Source: a virus. Taken from it: a stretch of 15,174 nucleotides of DNA. A program made the position numbers and the translations under genes. Below, one piece after another: positions 1 through 7,496 of this stretch. The first letter of the stretch is position 1. Each line of letters starts with the position of its first letter. The notes under the pieces were generated by a model. It was not told the origin of the DNA. It saw nothing but the letters and a program-made list of their open reading frames with translations, and did not search any database. The stretch is taken from UHGV virus genome UHGV-1738898; one strand, 5' to 3'.

Positions 1-111
1 CTGAGGCAGCACCTGGCACGGCTGGGACGGAAGTCGCTGTCGTTCTCAAAATCGGTGGAGCTGCATGACAAAGTCATCGGGCATTATCTGAACATAAAAC
101 ACTATCAATAA
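1..111 (+). other. 3' end of an ORF entering from upstream of the window (frame 1, stop TAA 109-111); possibly the displaced 5' part of the gpE-like capsid gene
   Basis: Frame 1 is open from position 1 to the TAA at 109-111 ([36 protein letters not shown]). It aligns weakly, in register, with lambda gpE residues about 29-50 (R..S..F...G). The downstream E-like ORF is in frame 3. Confidence 0.3.
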
Positions 112-170
112 GTTGGAGTCATTACCCACGAGATGAGGGATACGAATCAAAAACAATTCGTCCAGGTTAT

Positions 171-965
171 ATGAAGCCGAAAAGCAGCATTGATCCAAAT
201 AAGTTAGCTGTGCGCCCTGCTGGTGTGTCACCTGAGCAATACAATGCTTTTGGGGCGCGTAATATTAAAGTTAAACAGGCGATTGTAAATCAGGCTAAAG
301 CTATTCGTGCACGTATTGAATGGCTTGCTGTTCAGGCAATCACAACGGGGAAAAATATCATTGAGGGCGATGGTATTGAACGTTATGAGCTGGACTGGAA
401 TATAAAACCACAAAATATCATCACTCAGTCTGGCGGTACTGAGTGGTCAGGTAAGGATAAAGAAACTTTTGATCCAAATGATGATATTGAGAGCTACGCA
501 GAATTTAGTGAGGGCGTCACTAATATCATCATTATGGGTGGTAATGTATGGAAGAAATACCGTTCATTCAGAGCGATAAAAGAGGCTTTGGATACCCGTC
601 GTGGTTCTAATTCCGAACTGGAAACGGCCCTTAAAGACCTTGGTGATTCGGTGAGTTTTAAAGGGTATATGGGCGATGTTGCGATTGTTGTTTACAGCGG
701 GCGTTATACCGACGAGGACGGAACAGAAAAACATTTCCTTGATCCTGATTTGATGGTGCTTGGCAATACGGCTCTTCAGGGGATTGTCGCCTATGGCGGT
801 ATTCAGGATCCGGAGCTAATCCGAATGGGGCTGACTAAAGCCGAACTTGCACCGAAAAACTATATTGTGCCTGGTGATCCGGCTATTGAATATGTGCAGA
901 CACATTCAGCACCACAGCCAATACCGGCCCGCATCAATCGTTTTGTTACCGTTCGCATTGGCTAA
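171..965 (+). CDS. Major capsid protein homolog (lambda gpE family), divergent; 5'-incomplete or frameshifted copy covering the equivalent of gpE residues ~78-341
   Basis: The 264-aa ORF aligns along its whole length with the lambda E protein encoded at 6034-7059 in this window (shared blocks ITQSGGTEWS..KDK.T.DP.DDIE.YA, LDTRRGS.SELETA.KDLG, GDVAIVVYSG, MVLGNT, IQD). Similarity continues upstream of the ATG in the same frame (PGYMKPK vs lambda PGYVKPK) until an in-frame TGA at 66-68. No convincing Shine-Dalgarno precedes ATG 171. Confidence 0.65.
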   Translation: MKPKSSIDPNKLAVRPAGVSPEQYNAFGARNIKVKQAIVNQAKAIRARIEWLAVQAITTGKNIIEGDGIERYELDWNIKPQNIITQSGGTEWSGKDKETFDPNDDIESYAEFSEGVTNIIIMGGNVWKKYRSFRAIKEALDTRRGSNSELETALKDLGDSVSFKGYMGDVAIVVYSGRYTDEDGTEKHFLDPDLMVLGNTALQGIVAYGGIQDPELIRMGLTKAELAPKNYIVPGDPAIEYVQTHSAPQPIPARINRFVTVRIG

Positions 966-974
966 GGGGGAGCA

Positions 975-1316
975 ATGGCTACTCATTACACTGAACTCAT
1001 GGCTGGCACTGAAGCACTGGTGACTACGCTGGGGATATTTTCAGCTAATAAAGGGGTAATTCCTGCATTTACGCCACTGATGCAGGAAGATGCAACAGGT
1101 GCACTGGTGGTATGGGATGGTTCGAGCGTAGGTAAAGCGGTTTATGTTTCCGCTGTACAAATCGACACCGCGAAAAAAATACAGGCTCAGGTCTATAAGA
1201 CAGGTGTCTTAAATGTTGATGCTCTGAACTGGCCTGAGTCTGTTAAAGAACTGTCAGTAAAGGTTGCAGCGTTTGTTGGCTCAGGTATTTCTGTTCAGCC
1301 GCTGGCTCGTGTGTAA
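975..1316 (+). CDS. Head decoration protein homolog (lambda gpD family), divergent
   Basis: The 113-aa ORF has a strong RBS (GGGGGAG, 966-972). It aligns with lambda D encoded at 5647-5979 (THY near the N-terminus; PAFTPLMQEDATGALVVWDG vs [20 protein letters not shown]; VYKTG...WPE vs FYKSG...WPE; AF.G..IS near the C-terminus). Confidence 0.7.
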   Translation: MATHYTELMAGTEALVTTLGIFSANKGVIPAFTPLMQEDATGALVVWDGSSVGKAVYVSAVQIDTAKKIQAQVYKTGVLNVDALNWPESVKELSVKVAAFVGSGISVQPLARV

Positions 1317-1327
1317 AGGGGGATACA

Positions 1328-1711
1328 ATGCAGAATGATTACAATGACCTTAAGCCAATTGCCGAAATGATGTACCCGAATCCAGCTGTAGAGGAATTAA
1401 AAGCTATCGCTGACAAAATGTGTTTAAGCGAGCGCCTTGTTGATATGAATCAGGTGATGGAAATTACAACCCTGAGTCGTCGTACACTGCTAAACCTTGA
1501 GGCTAGTGGAGAGTTCCCGGAGCGTGTGCAGGTTACGGAAGGGCGTAAGGCCTGGTATTTAAGTGAAGTGATCGACTGGATAAATAATATTCCTCGCGCT
1601 TCTGAATATTGCCGCGTACCTGTCCCAAAAAAGCCAGATGCGGCGCTATGCCTCAAGATTGAGCGTGTACGCCGCAATGCACGGGATGGTCGCTATAAGC
1701 TGATTGGTTGA
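1328..1711 (+). CDS. AlpA/excisionase-family winged-HTH DNA-binding protein with N- and C-terminal extensions
   Basis: The 127-aa ORF has a strong RBS (AGGGGGA). Its central segment LVDMNQVMEITTLSRRTLLNLEASGEFPERVQVTEGRKAWYLSEVIDWI matches the AlpA family pattern (LSRxTIYxLxxxGxFPxPVxLGxRxVxWxxSEIxxWI). Confidence 0.7.
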   Translation: MQNDYNDLKPIAEMMYPNPAVEELKAIADKMCLSERLVDMNQVMEITTLSRRTLLNLEASGEFPERVQVTEGRKAWYLSEVIDWINNIPRASEYCRVPVPKKPDAALCLKIERVRRNARDGRYKLIG

Positions 1712-1736
1712 TGAAATTAGGGCCCGCTCTGGCTGG

Positions 1737-1801
1737 CGGGTCCTTTCCGGTGATCCGGTAGGCTACGGGGCGGCGACCTCGCGGGTTTTCGCTATTTATG
1801 A
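1737..1801. other. cos: Lambda-type cohesive-end site (cosQ/cosN region); the 12-nt cohesive-end sequence GGGCGGCGACCT lies at 1768-1779
   Basis: CGGGTCCTTTCCGGTGATCCG...TACGGGGCGGCGACCTCGCGGGTTTTCGCTATTTATGA matches my recollection of the lambda right-end/left-end junction (ACGGGTCCTTTCCGGTGATCCGACAGGTTACG | GGGCGGCGACCTCGCGGGTTTTCGCTATTTATGAAAATTTTCC). There are a few mismatches just left of cosN and complete divergence after ...TATTTATGA. It sits in the 200-bp gap between the AlpA-like gene and the Nu1-like gene, 134 bp upstream of the latter. Confidence 0.8.
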
Positions 1802-1912
1802 GCCTTTTTCGGGTGCTGGTGGTGGTTTTGTTGTTCGCTCTATCTCTATGAATAAAAAGGAAAAGATAAAGCCAATACACCAACCTGAAACATTACTTAA
1901 GTGGGGATATTG
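1802..1912. promoter_or_regulatory. Putative divergent cosB (small-terminase binding region) between cosN and the Nu1-like gene
   Basis: This is the position equivalent to lambda cosB (R3-I1-R2-R1), but the sequence is unrelated to the lambda R sites (CGTTTCC-type). It contains short repeats (GGTGGTGG, TTGTTGTT, CTCTATCTCTAT) and an A-rich tract. The call rests on position only. Confidence 0.3.
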
Positions 1913-2455
1913 ATGAAATCGCACCTGATGAACAAAAAAAACATGGCGCAAAGCTGCCGTGTAAGTGCGACAGCGTTCGACAAGTGGGGAGTGACTCCCG
2001 TTGAACGTAAAGGCCGCGAGGCGTTTTATGATGTTGCCAGCGTAATAGACAATCGGGTTAGCAATGCAATTAACCAGATTACAGACGACAAAGGCGAGAT
2101 TGATGATGATGAACTCCTACGAGTCAGGATCAGATTGCTGACAGCACAGGCAGAGGCGCAGGAGCTTAAAAACGAGCGCGAACGCGGCGACGTTATTGAT
2201 ACAGCGTTTTGTATATACGTGCTTTCAAAATTGGCGAGTCAGATTTCTTCAATCATGGACAGCCTGCCGCTTGCCATGACAAGGAAGTTTCCCGACATGA
2301 AGCCGTCTATGCTGGATGGACTGAAAAAAGAAGTTATCAGAGCCTGTAACGCATGCGCAAAACTTGACGAAAACATACCGCTGATGCTGTCCGATTATCT
2401 GATGGAAACTGCCGGAAACGTACCGGATAAGTTGCAGCCGAATAAAGATAAGTAA
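1913..2455 (+). CDS. Terminase small subunit, lambda Nu1 family; N-terminal DNA-binding domain divergent, C-terminal half conserved
   Basis: ATG 1913 is preceded by GGGGA (1903-1907); the ORF track shows an upstream GTG at 1901. The C-terminal region RLLTAQAEAQELKNERERGDVIDTAFCIYVLSKLASQISSIMDSLPLAMTRKFPD closely matches lambda Nu1 (RLTRAQADAQELKNARDSAEVVETAFCTFVLSRIAGEIASILDGLPLSVQRRFPE, from memory). The N-terminus is only loosely similar (NKK, YD.A.VI). Confidence 0.8.
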   Translation: MKSHLMNKKNMAQSCRVSATAFDKWGVTPVERKGREAFYDVASVIDNRVSNAINQITDDKGEIDDDELLRVRIRLLTAQAEAQELKNERERGDVIDTAFCIYVLSKLASQISSIMDSLPLAMTRKFPDMKPSMLDGLKKEVIRACNACAKLDENIPLMLSDYLMETAGNVPDKLQPNKDK

Positions 2456-2466
2456 CGTAGTACGCT

Positions 2467-2748
2467 ATGACTGAATCCGAAATACTGCGATTAATCCGCC
2501 GTGCTTGTGGAATCAGCAAGCAGCATGACGAACAGGCCACGCAGCCGGACAGCGTGACCGCAGATAATTATGTGCGTGTAGTGGCTGAGGTGATGCGCCG
2601 TGACGGTATTGAGCTTAACGGCGTGGATATGCGCAACATACGAACAAGAGTCCTTGAGTTGCTGGCATATCGTCGCCGTTCTCAACAACGGAGGGAGAGC
2701 GCGAAAAATACTTACCAGTGGAAGAAGCCGGAACGATTGCGGCGGTAA
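2467..2748 (+). CDS. Hypothetical 93-aa protein with an arginine/lysine-rich C-terminus; sits where the large-terminase gene A would start in lambda
   Basis: Intact ORF 12 bp after the Nu1-like stop, with a weak RBS. It has no recognisable similarity to the lambda gpA N-terminus or any family I can name. C-terminal tail RRRSQQRRESAKNTYQWKKPERLRR. Confidence 0.4.
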   Translation: MTESEILRLIRRACGISKQHDEQATQPDSVTADNYVRVVAEVMRRDGIELNGVDMRNIRTRVLELLAYRRRSQQRRESAKNTYQWKKPERLRR

Positions 2749-2763
2749 CTTGCTGATATTCCC

Positions 2764-2788
2764 GATAACGCAAAATTGCGCTGGCTGA
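2764..2788. repeat. 25-bp direct repeat, copy 1 (GATAACGCAAAATTGCGCTGGCTGA), containing an inverted repeat CGCAA-aa-TTGCG
   Basis: Matches 2950-2974 at 22 of 25 positions. A second small dyad TTGCA-t-TGCAA lies at 2793-2803. Confidence 0.6.
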
Positions 2789-2949
2789 CTTGTTGCATTG
2801 CAAAAAGTTAAGCAGGAAGGCACGGCCTGTAAGATGGGATGCAGTAAGTAGTTCAAGGCTACCTTGTGCTGGCACGCACAGTTAAGCCGTCGGTGCTGGA
2901 TATCCCCCACTGGGGGAAAAGCTGGCTACATCCCTCACATCTGAGGACT

Positions 2950-2974
2950 GATAACGCGACATTGCGCTGGCTGG
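2950..2974. repeat. 25-bp direct repeat, copy 2 (GATAACGCGACATTGCGCTGGCTGG)
   Basis: Matches 2764-2788 at 22 of 25 positions. It is followed at 2979-2992 by the inverted repeat GTGCAA-aa-TTGCAC. Confidence 0.6.
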
Positions 2975-2999
2975 CAAAGTGCAAAATTGCACGATGGCC

Positions 3000-3161
3000 T
3001 AACCCATTGATTATTTCGAAAACCTGCAATGCAGGAAATCGGGGAAGTAAGCCTAAGCTATTGATTGTTTCGAAAACCCCCATTGGGGGATGTCGGGAAA
3101 GTAAGACTAACCCATTGATTCTTCCACAATCCTCAATTTGAGGAGGCCGGAACGTCTACAT
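3000..3161. repeat. Three tandem ~54-bp units, each carrying a perfect 13-bp 6-1-6 dyad at the same phase (3023-3035 CCTGCAATGCAGG; 3077-3089 CCCCCATTGGGGG; 3131-3143 CCTCAATTTGAGG)
   Basis: Units 1 and 2 (3000-3053, 3054-3107) are about 78% identical by my count. Unit 3 starts with the same 13 nt (TAACCCATTGATT) and then degenerates, but keeps a perfect dyad exactly 54 bp after the previous one. Arm substitutions between dyads are mirrored so symmetry is preserved. A related dyad CCCCCACTGGGGG lies at 2904-2916. Confidence 0.7.
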
Positions 3162-3428
3162 AGCTGCATCGCCGTAATGATGATTCAGCCCACCAGCCAA
3201 ATCAGCACAGCAACGACAGAATAGCCCGACACAGAAAAACCACGAATATGGGGTTTTTGTTATGACATGGTCATGATGACCACTCATACAAAACAGGTAA
3301 AGCCCACCAGCCTGATTAAAGGTTAACCGGAAAAAAGCCAGGTATCCAATCTCGATATGGGGATCCCTATATCGACATTAACGCCCACTAAAACTGTGCA
3401 TATATGCATAGAAAAAGCATCCACCAGC

Positions 3429-3520
3429 TTTATGACGGATGCCGCTCATCTTATAAATAATCGTGTATTGCAGTGTGTATTGCGACTCCTTTAAACGATA
3501 GGTCTGAGCATTCGTAATGT
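3429..3520 (+). promoter_or_regulatory. AT-rich region with sigma70-like promoter candidates upstream of the truncated B fragment
   Basis: Candidate 1: TTTATG (3429-3434), 17-bp spacer, TATAAA (3452-3457). Candidate 2: TTAAAC (3491-3496), 18-bp spacer, TAATGT (3515-3520). Hexamer matching by eye only. Confidence 0.2.
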
Positions 3521-3563
3521 ACTGTTTTTAAATTTTATTTTTTCCTGTCTTTTCATAAAGGCG

Positions 3564-4337
3564 ATGTATGCCGCCACCATTGAAAGTGAGCTGGATACGC
3601 AGTCAGCGATGGATTTTATTCTGGGCGCGAACAGTCAGGAGCAGCGGGAAAGGCTGACGGGCTGGATTGGTGAAATTGCCGCGTATTACGCTGCAGCACC
3701 GGTCCGTCTGGGAGGCGCAAAAGTGCCGCACCTGATGCCGGGGGACTCACTGAACCTGCAGACGGCTCAGGACACGGATAACGGCTACTCCGTGTTTGAG
3801 CAGTCACTGTTGCGGTATATCGCTGCCGGGCTGGGTGTCTCGTATGAGCAGCTTTCCCGGAATTACGCCCAGATGAGCTACTCCACGGCACGGGCCAGTG
3901 CGAACGAGTCGTGGGCGTACTTTATGGGGCGGCGAAAATTCGTCGCATCCCGTCAGGCGAGCCAGATGTTTCTGTGCTGGCTGGAAGAGGCCATCGTTCG
4001 CCGCGTGGTGACGTTACCTTCAAAAGCGCGCTTCAGCTTTCAGGAAGCCCGCAGTGCCTGGGGGAACTGCGACTGGATAGGCTCCGGTCGTATGGCCATC
4101 GATGGTCTGAAAGAAGTTCAGGAAGCGGTGATGCTGATAGAAGCCGGACTGAGCACCTACGAGAAAGAGTGCGCGAAACGCGGTGACGACTATCAGGAAA
4201 TTTTTGCCCAGCAGGTCCGTGAAACGATGGAGCGCCGTGCAACCGGTCTTAAACCGCCCGCCTGGGCGGCTGCGGCATTTGAATCCGGACTGCGACAATC
4301 AACAGAGGAGGAGAAGAGTGACAGCAGAGCTGCGTAA
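3564..4337 (+). pseudogene. B: Portal protein gpB, 3' fragment only (C-terminal 257 codons, equivalent to lambda B residues ~277-533)
   Basis: The ORF (MYAATIESELDTQSAMDFILGANSQEQRERLTGWIGEIAAYYAAAP...AAAFESGLRQSTEEEKSDSRAA) matches the C-terminal half of lambda B as I recall it. An in-frame stop lies at 3492-3494. DNA upstream of ~3555 is AT-rich, non-coding and unlike lambda. The first approximately 276 codons of B are absent from the window. Confidence 0.85.
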
Positions 4338-5637: not shown

Positions 5638-5646
5638 GGGATGTTT

Positions 5647-5979
5647 ATGACGAGCAAAGAAACCTTTACCCATTACCAGCCGCTGGGCAACAGTGACCCG
5701 GCTCATACCGCAACCGCGCCCGGCGGATTGAGTGCGAAAGCGCCTGCAATGACCCCGCTGATGCTGGACACCTCCACCCGTAAGCTGGTTGCGTGGGATG
5801 GCACCACCGACGGTGCTGCCGTTGGCATTCTTGCAGTTGCTGCTGACCAGACCAGCACCACACTGACGTTCTACAAGTCCGGCACGTTCCGTTATGAGGA
5901 TGTGCTCTGGCCGGAGGCTGCCAGCGACGAGACGAAAAAACGGACCGCGTTTGCCGGAACGGCAATCAGCATCGTTTAA
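5647..5979 (+). CDS. D: Head decoration protein gpD
   Basis: [42 protein letters not shown]...FAGTAISIV matches lambda D (110 aa). The ORF-track start at 5641 adds two upstream in-frame codons. Confidence 0.9.
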
Positions 5980-6000
5980 CTTTACCCTTCATCACTAAAG

Positions 6001-6020
6001 GCCGCCTGTGCGGCTTTTTT
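6001..6020 (+). terminator. GC stem-loop followed by a T-run in the D-E intergenic region (terminator-like hairpin)
   Basis: GCCGC (6001-6005), loop CTGT, GCGGC (6010-6014), then TTTTTT (6015-6020). The stem is short, so it may act as an RNA stability or processing element rather than an efficient terminator. Confidence 0.3.
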
Positions 6021-6033
6021 ACGGGATTTTTTT

Positions 6034-7059
6034 ATGTCGATGTACACAACCGCCCAGCTGCTGGCGGCAAATGAGCAGAAATTTAAGTTTGATCCGCTGT
6101 TTCTGCGTCTCTTTTTCCGTGAGAGCTATCCCTTCACTACGGAGAAAGTCTATCTCTCACAAATTCCGGGACTGGTAAACATGGCGCTGTACGTTTCGCC
6201 GATTGTTTCCGGTGAGGTTATCCGTTCCCGTGGCGGCTCCACCTCTGAATTTACGCCGGGATATGTCAAACCCAAGCATGAAGTGAATCCGCAGATGACC
6301 CTGCGTCGCCTGCCGGATGAAGATCCGCAGAATCTGGCGGACCCGGCTTACCGCCGCCGTCGCATCATCATGCAGAACATGCGTGACGAAGAGCTGGCCA
6401 TTGCTCAGGTCGAAGAGATGCAGGCAGTTTCTGCCGTGCTCAAGGGCAAATACACCATGACCGGTGAAGCCTTCGATCCGGTTGAGGTGGATATGGGCCG
6501 CAGTGCGGCGAACAACATCACGCAGTCCGGCGGCACGGAGTGGAGCAAGCGTGACAAGTCCACGTATGACCCGACCGACGATATCGAAGCCTACGCGCTG
6601 AACGCCAGCGGCGTGGTGAATATCATCGTGTTTGACCCGAAAGGCTGGGCGCTGTTCCGTTCCTTCAAAGCCGTCAGGGAGAAGCTGGATACCCGTCGCG
6701 GCTCTCATTCCGAACTGGAGACAGCGGTAAAAGACCTGGGCAAAGCGGTGTCTTATAAGGGAATGTATGGCGATGTGGCCATCGTCGTGTATTCCGGACA
6801 GTACGTGGAAAACGGTGTCAAAAAGAACTTCCTGCCGGACAACACGATGGTGCTGGGTAACACTCATGCACGCGGTCTGCGCACCTATGGCTGTATTCAG
6901 GATGCGGATGCATTGAGTGAGGGTATTAATGCGTCTCCCCGTTATCCGAAAAACTGGAAGACATCCGGCGATCCGGCGCGAGAGTTCACCATGATTCAGT
7001 CAGCACCGCTGATGCTGCTGGCTGATCCTGATGAGTTCGTGTCCGTTCAACTGGCGTAA
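6034..7059 (+). CDS. E: Major capsid protein gpE
   Basis: The 341-aa ORF beginning MSMYTTAQLLAANEQKFKFDPLFLRLFFRESYPFTTEKVYLSQIPGLVNMALYVSPIVSGEVIRSRGG... matches lambda E essentially end to end. Confidence 0.95.
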   Translation: MSMYTTAQLLAANEQKFKFDPLFLRLFFRESYPFTTEKVYLSQIPGLVNMALYVSPIVSGEVIRSRGGSTSEFTPGYVKPKHEVNPQMTLRRLPDEDPQNLADPAYRRRRIIMQNMRDEELAIAQVEEMQAVSAVLKGKYTMTGEAFDPVEVDMGRSAANNITQSGGTEWSKRDKSTYDPTDDIEAYALNASGVVNIIVFDPKGWALFRSFKAVREKLDTRRGSHSELETAVKDLGKAVSYKGMYGDVAIVVYSGQYVENGVKKNFLPDNTMVLGNTHARGLRTYGCIQDADALSEGINASPRYPKNWKTSGDPAREFTMIQSAPLMLLADPDEFVSVQLA

Positions 7060-7061
7060 TC

Positions 7062-7085
7062 ATGGCCCTTAGGGGCCATTTTCTC
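7062..7085 (+). terminator. Stem-loop plus T/C-rich tail in the E-FI intergenic region
   Basis: ATGGCCC (7062-7068), loop TTAG, GGGCCAT (7073-7079), followed by TTTTCT. Structure only; function unverified. Confidence 0.25.
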
Positions 7086-7100
7086 TCTGTGGAGGAGTCC

Positions 7101-7496
7101 ATGACGAAAGATGAACTGATTGCCCGTCTCCGGTCGCTGGGTGAGCAACTGAACCGTGATGTCAGCCTGACGGGGACGAAAGAAGAACTGGCGCTCCGTG
7201 TGGCAGAGCTGGAAGAGGAGCTTGATGACAAGGATGACGCAGCCGGTCAGGACACGTCTGTCAGCCCGGAAAATGCGCTGACCGGACATGAAAATGAGGT
7301 GGTATCAGCACAGACGGATACCGTGACTGATACGGCTGTTCTGGTCACGGTTGTGGCACTGGTGACGCTGCATACCGATGCACTTCACGCCACGCGGGAT
7401 GAGGCTGTGGCATTTGTGCTGCCGGGAACGGCGTTCCGTGTCTCTGCCGGTGTGGCAGCCGAAATGACAGAACGTGGCCTGGCCAGAATGCAATAA
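7101..7496 (+). CDS. FI: DNA-packaging / head assembly protein gpFI
   Basis: ATG 7101 is preceded by GGAGGAG. MTKDELIARLRSLGEQLNRDVSLTGTKEELALRVAEL... and ...HTDALHATRDEAVAFVLPGTAFRVSAGVAAEMTERGLARMQ match lambda FI. The central linker differs from what I recall of lambda. Confidence 0.9.
   Translation: MTKDELIARLRSLGEQLNRDVSLTGTKEELALRVAELEEELDDKDDAAGQDTSVSPENALTGHENEVVSAQTDTVTDTAVLVTVVALVTLHTDALHATRDEAVAFVLPGTAFRVSAGVAAEMTERGLARMQ

Follow-up and report, generated by a model that had tools for sequence, protein, structure and literature searches.

The only packaging-hijack mechanism characterised in Gram-negative cos-type phage-inducible chromosomal islands (PICIs) is that of the Rpp proteins, which need the small terminase subunit (TerS) of the helper phage and use it as a bridge (PMC9026076, PMC6739421). 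In Staphylococcus aureus pathogenicity islands (SaPIs), the satellite encodes a TerS that reads only satellite DNA and uses the large terminase subunit (TerL) of the helper (PMC6739421). The existence of TerS-encoding Escherichia coli PICIs was noted in 2018, when those of IHE3034 and 18098 were reported to "encode TerS" (Fillol-Salom et al. 2018, PMC6092414); this terS cassette takes the place that Rpp has in islands of the same kind, and neither a helper nor a mechanism has been reported for it. The gene described here, at 1913-2455 of a 15,174-nucleotide stretch of the virus genome UHGV-1738898 (the whole stretch being called the window), belongs to such a cassette. With a probability of roughly 60%, its product reads a private cosB and brings the large terminase of the helper, gpA, to a shared cosN, which would be an Rpp-independent hijack of packaging. 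What is added to the 2018 observation is a corrected context, the pairing of an N15-class DNA-binding domain (DBD) with its cosB, a variable tail and a concrete helper-satellite pair; in the searchable literature no description was found of the DBD class, the cosB or the helper of this island TerS.

A Nu1-family small terminase encoded by a satellite

The open reading frame (ORF) at 1913-2455, on the plus strand, is intact and encodes 180 amino acids (aa), with an ATG start at 1913 and GGGGA ahead of it. Its product is a genuine small terminase of the Nu1 (lambda) family, as a first-pass annotation of the DNA had held. It matches the Pfam family Phage_Nu1 (PF07471) with E=3.3e-24 and 85.8 bits, against a score cutoff of 30 bits, only over aa 66-148, and, along practically its whole length, PHROG 57, "terminase small subunit" (E=5e-51, aa 1-176), the first 69 residues alone still matching PHROG 57 with E=5.5e-12. 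The protein can be divided into a winged helix-turn-helix (wHTH) of the N15/D3 class at about aa 5-50, a linker, a conserved central helical region at aa 69-125, and a variable tail at aa 126-180 that is proposed to dock on TerL.

The surrounding DNA, from 127 to 3570, is the right part of a PICI of about 10.9 kb that lies co-oriented in the portal gene B of a lambdoid prophage and is thus helper-embedded. Homology to intact islands begins at window position 127, and 65 complete E. coli genomes carry the interval 127-3600 without a break. The intact copies in N66 and APEC O2-211 (loci L001 and L002) are 10.9-kb elements within gene B, with the order int, a helix-turn-helix gene, BRO-N, Icd-like, DUF4222, primase, SSB, major capsid protein, decoration protein, AlpA-like, cos, terS, and a gene for a 93-aa protein. 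Both loci show the features by which Gram-negative PICIs are recognised (Fillol-Salom 2018), namely a size of ~10-15 kb, int, alpA, primase/replication genes, unidirectional gene order, an att site of their own, and no lysis or tail genes, while the split portal gene and a 13-bp core are those of a helper-embedded PICI (Tommasini 2023). When the junctions are mapped with lambda B and the L001 attL as references, both contain an imperfect core of 13 bp, AAGGCGAT[G/T]TATG, which corresponds to nt 3658-3670 of lambda B and of which the attR copy, AAGGCGATGTATG, lies on the plus strand at 3558-3570. Downstream of the island come the 3' part of the split helper gene B (3558-4337, plus strand), which is 97.5% identical to lambda B from nt 3658 and matches only positions 238-354 of the Phage_portal_2 profile, and then lambda-like C, D, E and tail genes through K. 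In N66 and APEC O2-211, the helper's own Nu1, gpA and W lie just upstream of the island; this Nu1 is 99% identical to lambda Nu1, and the gpA, which is 99-100% identical to lambda gpA, is the only TerL nearby in the intact copies. The embedded copy and its lambda-gpA prophage are therefore the helper-satellite pair referred to above.

A member of the Nu1 family positioned right after cos could be taken for the ordinary small terminase of a complete lambdoid phage with an adjacent gpA, but the gene content refutes this explanation, which is almost certainly wrong. No TerL was found in the island, be it in the window or in the ~25 related loci examined, and no gpA-sized ORF follows terS, the next features being the 93-aa ORF, a gene-free stretch of ~800 bp and the 3' part of the portal gene. 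Moreover, a collection of 50,697 phage records holds no close homologue, the best matches reaching 52-59% over the DBD and <=56% over the C-terminal half. What looked like an ordinary "mosaic terminase" turns out to be a satellite gene.

The DNA-binding domain and the hybrid cos site

Along its length, the island TerS is 38% (aa 5-50), 53% (aa 69-125) and 40% (aa 126-167) identical to lambda Nu1, and 61, 51 and 40% identical to N15 gp1, with the DBD as the part most conserved relative to N15. In a joint alignment, the identity of the island DBD is 61% to N15 gp1 (over aa 5-50), 59% to MD8, and 29-38% to lambda, phi80 and 21. The nearest phage relatives also differ between the two halves of the protein when these are searched separately by tblastn against the same 50,697 phage records. 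For the N-terminal 66 aa, the only matches are N15 gp1 (52.5% identity, E=3e-15), another ravinvirus whose DBD is identical to that of N15, D3-like phages of Pseudomonas (~59%) and a single Alteromonas phage; lambda, 21 and phi80 are never matched, even at E<=10. The C-terminal 114 aa match best the lambdoid phages of E. coli (PhiR5_1 54%, lambda 49%, phi80 47% and 21 45%) and are 32-38% identical to Pseudomonas phages.

In the joint alignment the Nu1 family falls into two DBD classes. Both the wing and helix 3 are shorter in the N15/D3 class, to which the N-terminal domain of the island TerS belongs by these comparisons. In the recognition-helix region, six of eight residues are identical in the comparison with N15 (SATAFDKW versus SVQAFDKW). 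The two classes are homologous, and the island domain is assigned to the wHTH fold on profile evidence: a profile made from N15-class DBDs only finds the crystal chain of lambda TerS(1-98), 6HN7_B, with E=3.7e-7, and hhalign relates the N15-class to the lambda-class DBDs with 98.2% probability (E=3.9e-14). A single-sequence search of the PDB with the island TerS matched neither lambda Nu1 nor Rpp, whereas the class profile did find lambda TerS. An Rpp/DUF1441-like reading of the N-terminus was dropped, PF07278 being precomputed on some homologues and not reproduced by hmmscan at E<=10.

The first-pass annotation had described a domain-wise mosaic with a swapped, strongly diverged N-terminal domain, as opposed to uniform divergence. 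The uneven identity to lambda agrees with this, and the domain is indeed unlike that of lambda; nevertheless, relative to N15 it is the best conserved part, and it is a homologous wHTH that is neither foreign nor peculiar to this gene. The mosaic is real at the level of DBD class, as an old feature already present in N15 gp1, and the term "swapped DBD" is misleading because N15 gp1 already joins an N15-class DBD to a lambda-like C-terminal half.

The cos site in front of terS, at 1737-1912, is a hybrid. Its left part (1737-1801, plus strand) is almost base-for-base the cosQ-cosN-I2 of lambda and of the resident helper, and alignment with both delimits a lambda-type cosQ-side block at 1737-1756, the 12-nt cohesive-end sequence of cosN, GGGCGGCGACCT, at 1768-1779, and an I2-like segment at 1780-1801. 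Similarity to the cos of lambda and of the resident helper stops abruptly at about 1802 (about +35), and the next 110 bp, up to the start codon, form a different cosB, which confirms the divergent DNA reported earlier at this position. The lambda R3-I1-R2-R1 sequences have no similarity in the island cosB, which carries G/T-rich elements of its own instead. The putative elements of this island-private cosB (1803-1912, plus strand) are (GGT)n-TTTTGTTGTT at the R3 position (1811-1835), an AT-rich spacer with 32% GC (1836-1872), an inverted CAATACACCAACCTGAA (1873-1889) and a weaker direct copy (1899-1912). The same arrangement is common to TerS-type islands, in which TATGAG is followed by CCTTTTYSGGGT-(GGT)n-TTTTGTTGTT, an AT-rich stretch, the inverted CAATACACCAACCTGAA and, just before the ATG, a last element, GTTGGTGTATT, that is clearest in L011 and IHE3034. 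In the sister island L011, the elements are inverted repeats of 21 nt (76%) and 11 nt (100%), and its predicted layout, R3->, R2<-, R1->, is like that of lambda with a different sequence; the R3/R2/R1 reading of the window cosB is based on L011 and on conservation.

The experimentally defined R3 of N15, at bp 48-59, is GAGGTTGTTGTT (PMC4669245), and in Pseudomonas MD8 GGTTGGTTGTTGTTT stands behind a similar CCTTTTTTCGG. The corresponding island element is TTGTTGTT, at bp 61-68, preceded by (GGT)n. Because the N15 R3 and the MD8 elements resemble the island cosB, DBD class and cosB class seem to go together, and the island protein is predicted to bind cosB at 1803-1912. Lambda- and 21-specific terminases cannot package N15-specific DNA (Feiss and co-workers, PMC4669245), while a TerS chimera with an N15 DBD and a lambda C-terminus is functional in combination with the TerL of lambda and can package even lambda DNA (PMC4669245). 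These results are a direct precedent both for the division of labour proposed here and for the privacy of the island cos.

These experiments also bear on the idea that the island TerS is an interference factor, titrating or misdirecting the gpA (or Nu1) of the helper and so cutting helper packaging. Interference is common in PICIs (Rpp, SaPI Ppi), and cross-talk with the helper cos is conceivable, since an N15-specific terminase acts on lambda cos (PMC4669245). Yet a decoy needs no cognate site next to cosN and cosQ, and the private cosB is tightly conserved along with the DBD, as would be expected of a packaging site in cis and the protein that reads it, so that a role in interference is improbable compared with the reading of cosB for packaging.

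Other features of the cos region distinguish the embedded island from its relatives. Its cosQ-side block, GGGTCCTTTCCGGTGATCCGGTAGGCTACG, is closer to lambda and to its own helper than that of the chromosomal sisters, GGGTCCTTCCTGGAATTATGGCCCGTTACG (window 1737-1767), which suggests an exchange with the cos of the helper. Sister islands carry a second, inverted cosN+I2 (L011 10685-10733, L013, L019, L020, L024 18263-18312), located between terS or rpp and the 93-aa gene and equivalent to the "cos2" of EcCICFT073. A second cosN of this kind was looked for in the window and none was found, the B-embedded island having a single cosN and being without the ~250-bp cos2 segment (absent at 2456-2466).

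The C-terminal half and docking on gpA

The part of the island TerS most similar to lambda is the central helical region, in which RLTxAQAxAQELKN is nearly identical. The last ~40 residues of TerS are held to bind TerL (PMC9026076, PMC6739421), and the first-pass annotation took the C-terminal ~100 residues to be close to lambda and the gpA-docking half to be conserved. Neither claim survives the comparison: overall identity is 47%, and in the last 41 residues 16/41 are identical to lambda, no closer than the match to phage 21 (15/41) or PhiR5_1 (19/41), the yardsticks being 13/41 between lambda and 21 and 33/41 between lambda and N15. The island TerS also has a 13-aa C-terminal extension relative to lambda gpNu1. 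Because the tail is lambda-identical at only 16/41 positions, docking on lambda gpA rests on context and is not predicted by sequence.

Conservation within the island family runs opposite to the emphasis of the first-pass annotation: mean identity is 96% in the DBD (entropy 0.16) and 94% at aa 69-100, the most conserved segment by entropy (0.10), and falls to 70% at aa 126-167 (entropy 0.58) and 68% in the tail (entropy 0.92). The dN/dS of the island terS is 0.17-0.22 overall and 0.04-0.09 in the DBD, and these values indicate that the gene is functional and under purifying selection. The tail is full-length, with omega between 0.07 and 0.26. In the same sequence pairs, the C-terminal segment has a ~10-fold higher dN and a dS that is much higher, even saturated; between the window and L011, for example, dS is 0.27 in the DBD and 3.8 in the tail. 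This indicates an exchange of tails by recombination among island lineages, and the tail is the most variable, recombining part of TerS in this family. A tail acquired recently from a known phage was not detected, the best phage match to either tail variant being 54-56%, and the diverged variants sampled are all at chromosomal att sites. TerL binding is proposed for this tail, which is present and under purifying selection.

These values also weigh on the suggestion that terS is a functionless captured late gene. Capture of late genes by PICIs is documented (PMC10111431), and the window copy lies in an island damaged by IS1. However, the gene is under purifying selection, occurs with intact copies and a co-conserved cosB in 767 genomes, and is not a copy of the helper nu1, to which it is 47% identical; the suggestion is very improbable.

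The tail is likewise the point at which a mixed-oligomer explanation departs from direct docking. The island TerS could sit on cosB and reach gpA by co-assembly with the helper Nu1 at aa 69-125, the helper supplying the tails, which would be the logic of Rpp through another interface. Such a bridge fits the strong conservation of aa 69-100 and the fact that the central region is the most lambda-like one and the tail is not, and sister islands do use the helper TerS (PMC9026076, PMC6739421). On the other hand, a bridge would not need a full-length tail under purifying selection, Rpp having dispensed with it, and heterodimerisation of DBDs in the style of Rpp is not expected, given a DBD class unlike that of the helper. 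A bridge of this type, the main rival, is unlikely, although less so than interference.

The preferred reading is direct recruitment of gpA. The N15/D3-class wHTH would bind the island-private cosB (1803-1912), which the lambda-type TerS of the helper would not recognise, and the C-terminal half would assemble with helper gpA and set it on the adjacent lambda-type cosN, while the conserved cosQ side would let gpA terminate packaging. Island concatemers could thus be cut and packaged by the helper motor into helper- or island-derived heads, and the helper TerS would not be needed, unlike in the case of the Rpp adaptor of EcCICFT073-type islands. A head of lambda size would be filled by about four units of 10.9 kb (43.6 kb), provided that the E and D homologues of the island do not build smaller ones; full-size heads have been reported for EcCICFT073 (PMC6092414). 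We infer in this way the DNA-binding specificity, the direct docking on gpA and the independence from helper TerS. The combination of helper gpA with a Nu1-type reader at a non-lambda cosB is plausible and is strengthened by context. The earlier suggestion of a Nu1-type protein that takes a lambda-like gpA to a different cosB therefore keeps its core, as the cosB matches the DBD class and the helper gpA is practically that of lambda, with the correction that the gene belongs to a satellite and has no TerL of its own.

Several observations weigh against this mechanism. By sequence, the island tail is as far from lambda as is that of phage 21, and lambda and 21 are a non-interchangeable pair. 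In the window cosB, no integration host factor (IHF) consensus with <=1 mismatch is present, and the repeats are too imperfect for a repeat search (seed 6), which reported nothing. The distance from cosN to TTGTTGTT exceeds that in N15 by 3-9 bp and depends on the copy number of (GGT)n, since three copies are present in L011 and five in L013, L019 and, with one mismatch, the window (1811-1826; also the L029 cos region), which shifts the distance by 6 bp; in lambda the cosN-cosB spacing is critical, and 3-bp changes are severely deleterious (PMC9026076). The structure prediction proposed earlier gave little help: the AlphaFold2 (AF2) model of the full protein, made from a 22-sequence alignment, has low confidence (pLDDT 58, pTM 0.32), so that the fold is not confirmed by it, and only the order of its helices (H8-14, H19-24, loop, H41-60) would fit a wHTH. 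Appreciable transfer of the IHE3034 and 18098 islands did not occur after induction of resident prophages (PMC6092414). Finally, the capsid gene of the window copy is damaged by IS1, and this copy may have lost its mobility, despite which its terS is 100% identical to that of the intact islands.

Distribution of the cassette and its neighbours

Homologues of the island TerS with 60-99% identity are always part of this PICI module without a TerL, which occupies at least five att sites; these include roxA/phoQ, cspD/clpS, yejM and rcnR/thiM as well as the helper genes E and B in which islands are embedded. By megablast, the terS cassette is present in 767 of 5,426 complete E. coli genomes, among them Nissle 1917 and strains of O157:H7, whereas 97 have the rppA cassette; at megablast sensitivity, in a comparison that omits RppC-like variants, terS is thus about eight times commoner.

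The backbone and the roxA/phoQ att site are also those of EcCICFT073, in which RppA (144 aa) fills the slot of terS between 137-aa and 93-aa neighbours nearly identical to those of TerS-type sister islands. Its nucleotide homology with the window extends over cosQ-cosN, is lost exactly where cosB begins and returns with the 93-aa gene; cosB+terS and cosB+rpp are therefore alternative cassettes of one PICI backbone. Two kinds of exchange are visible, that of the whole cosB+gene cassette between sister PICIs and, among the members of the island family, that of the C-terminal tail. At the R3 position, the cosB of the Rpp-type EcCICFT073 has (ACC)n where TerS-type islands have (GGT)n; the EcCICFT073 run, ACCACCACC at bp 55-63, is the reverse complement of (GGT)n and is the segment proposed as R3-PICI. 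The cassette bears on how the Rpp proteins arose. The DBD of RppA is lambda-like (30% to Nu1, E=2e-5), RppA and the island TerS have no blastp match at E<=10, and no Rpp appeared among the PDB matches of the latter; a derivation of Rpp from the island TerS was considered and is unlikely, since RppA is lambda-like and has no similarity to this protein.

It is proposed, tentatively and with somewhat less than even odds, that cosB+terS is the way by which E. coli PICIs predominantly hijack lambda-type packaging, independently of Rpp, that its N15-class DBD and cosB form a pair of no use to helper TerS of the lambda or 21 type, that the fast-evolving, recombining tail tracks the TerL of the available helper, and that the embedded copies point to a natural lambda-gpA helper, which was not found in the 2018 experiments. 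If direct recruitment holds, the cassette would also be a natural experiment on the separate evolution of a DNA reader and a TerL-docking tail.

The left end of the window (1-127) is the end of an IS1, 98-100% identical to copies in P1, SfIV and other records, that cuts the island capsid gene. The remainder of that gene (171-965, plus strand) encodes an N-terminally truncated lambda-E-like major capsid protein (Pfam Phage_cap_E, E=1.2e-32, profile positions 74-327) of 264 aa versus 346 aa, its ~80 first codons being gone; the full gene is at L001 19799-20839. It is followed by the gene for a lambda-D-like head decoration protein (975-1316, plus strand; Pfam HDPD, E=3.7e-14) that is present in all sister islands. 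The window therefore contains two capsid/decoration pairs, that of the island upstream of cos (171-1316) and the D and E of the helper downstream (5641-7059), the island genes being diverged homologues of the helper's and not duplicates. In EcCICFT073, the capsid and decoration genes are reported to be dispensable for transfer and interference (PMC6092414). The packaging gene FI of the N66 helper is annotated with an internal stop (L001 26976-27371); the FI position of the window (7062-7496) holds an intact ORF of 144 aa, versus 132 aa for lambda FI.

Directly upstream of cos, at 1328-1711 on the plus strand, lies the gene of an AlpA-like helix-turn-helix protein of 127 aa (Phage_AlpA, E=7.6e-9; PDB 8C3T AlpA, E=2e-9; PHROG 2790, E=1e-49). 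It is the second AlpA-family gene of the island, in addition to the alpA beside int. Islands embedded in B or E have it just ahead of cos, as do some chromosomal ones (cspD/clpS, rcnR/thiM), whereas other chromosomal islands, EcCICFT073 included, have an unrelated 137-aa gene in its place. Downstream of terS, the 93-aa protein (2467-2748, plus strand; PHROG 1561, E=1e-55) matches no Pfam family and has no assigned function. Its gene comes right after the packaging gene whether an island is of the TerS or the Rpp type, with ~80% identity to the EcCICFT073 homologue, and its product may be an accessory factor in packaging or in interference. The E-embedded islands of Citrobacter and Enterobacter have FRG and DUF3892 genes in its place, encoded on the opposite strand.

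The right arm up to attR (2749-3557) is non-coding, with no ORF that has family matches and with conserved short blocks. Two of these, at 2921-2954 (97%) and 3292-3386 (84-95%), are kept in islands at unrelated att sites and could be integrase arm sites or regulatory RNA. A terminator-like hairpin is present on the minus strand at 3443-3416; promoter and terminator scans gave results at or below chance, and no Rfam family was matched in window 1-4000.

Comparison with known systems

Among published islands, this one is a member of the class B_Phage_portal_2_241 of Tommasini, Mageeney and Williams 2023, whose islands have a size of 11 kb and the core aaggcgat and lie within portal gene B, co-oriented with the helper late genes; neither Nu1 nor terS is mentioned for the B-site class in the text and supplements of that work. 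Their model helper-embedded PICI, 11capE, "lacks terS", and 258 bp of its cos are 90% identical to that of its helper. The IHE3034 island has a TerS identical at 142/180 positions, the same cosB and the same module order, and differs in its cspD/clpS att site, another tail variant and a second inverted cosN.

The phage protein with the closest DBD is N15 gp1, which shares with the island the wHTH class, a G/T-rich R3-type element, a lambda-type cosN and a lambda-family C-terminal half; in contrast, it is a phage gene followed by its own TerL, and its C-terminal half is 78% lambda-like versus 46% in the island TerS. The island cosB looks tripartite like that of Monarch, a group of N15-like prophages likened here by description only, and unlike the simple cosB of N15. 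Lambda gpNu1 belongs to the same family, has the same domain order and the same position after cos, and its cos shares an identical cosN 12-mer and cosQ-side block, but DBD class, cosB and tail differ, and the gpA gene that overlaps it in lambda has no counterpart in the island.

The Rpp proteins (RppA; RppC, structures 6HN7 etc.) occupy the same slot, cos-[gene]-93aa, and combine helper-type cosQ and cosN with a private cosB and an island-encoded wHTH reader. They differ in having 139-154 aa, in lacking the central and tail regions of TerS, and with them the TerL-binding region, and in needing the helper TerS; the island protein, with 180 aa and a full Nu1 C-terminal half, is thus not an Rpp. 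In its logic it would resemble the small terminase of SaPIs, which is of an unrelated TerS family, serves headful (pac) instead of cos packaging in Gram-positive hosts and is accompanied by a separate inhibitor, Ppi. If the mechanism proposed here is true, the island TerS would be the cos-system counterpart of the SaPI TerS strategy.

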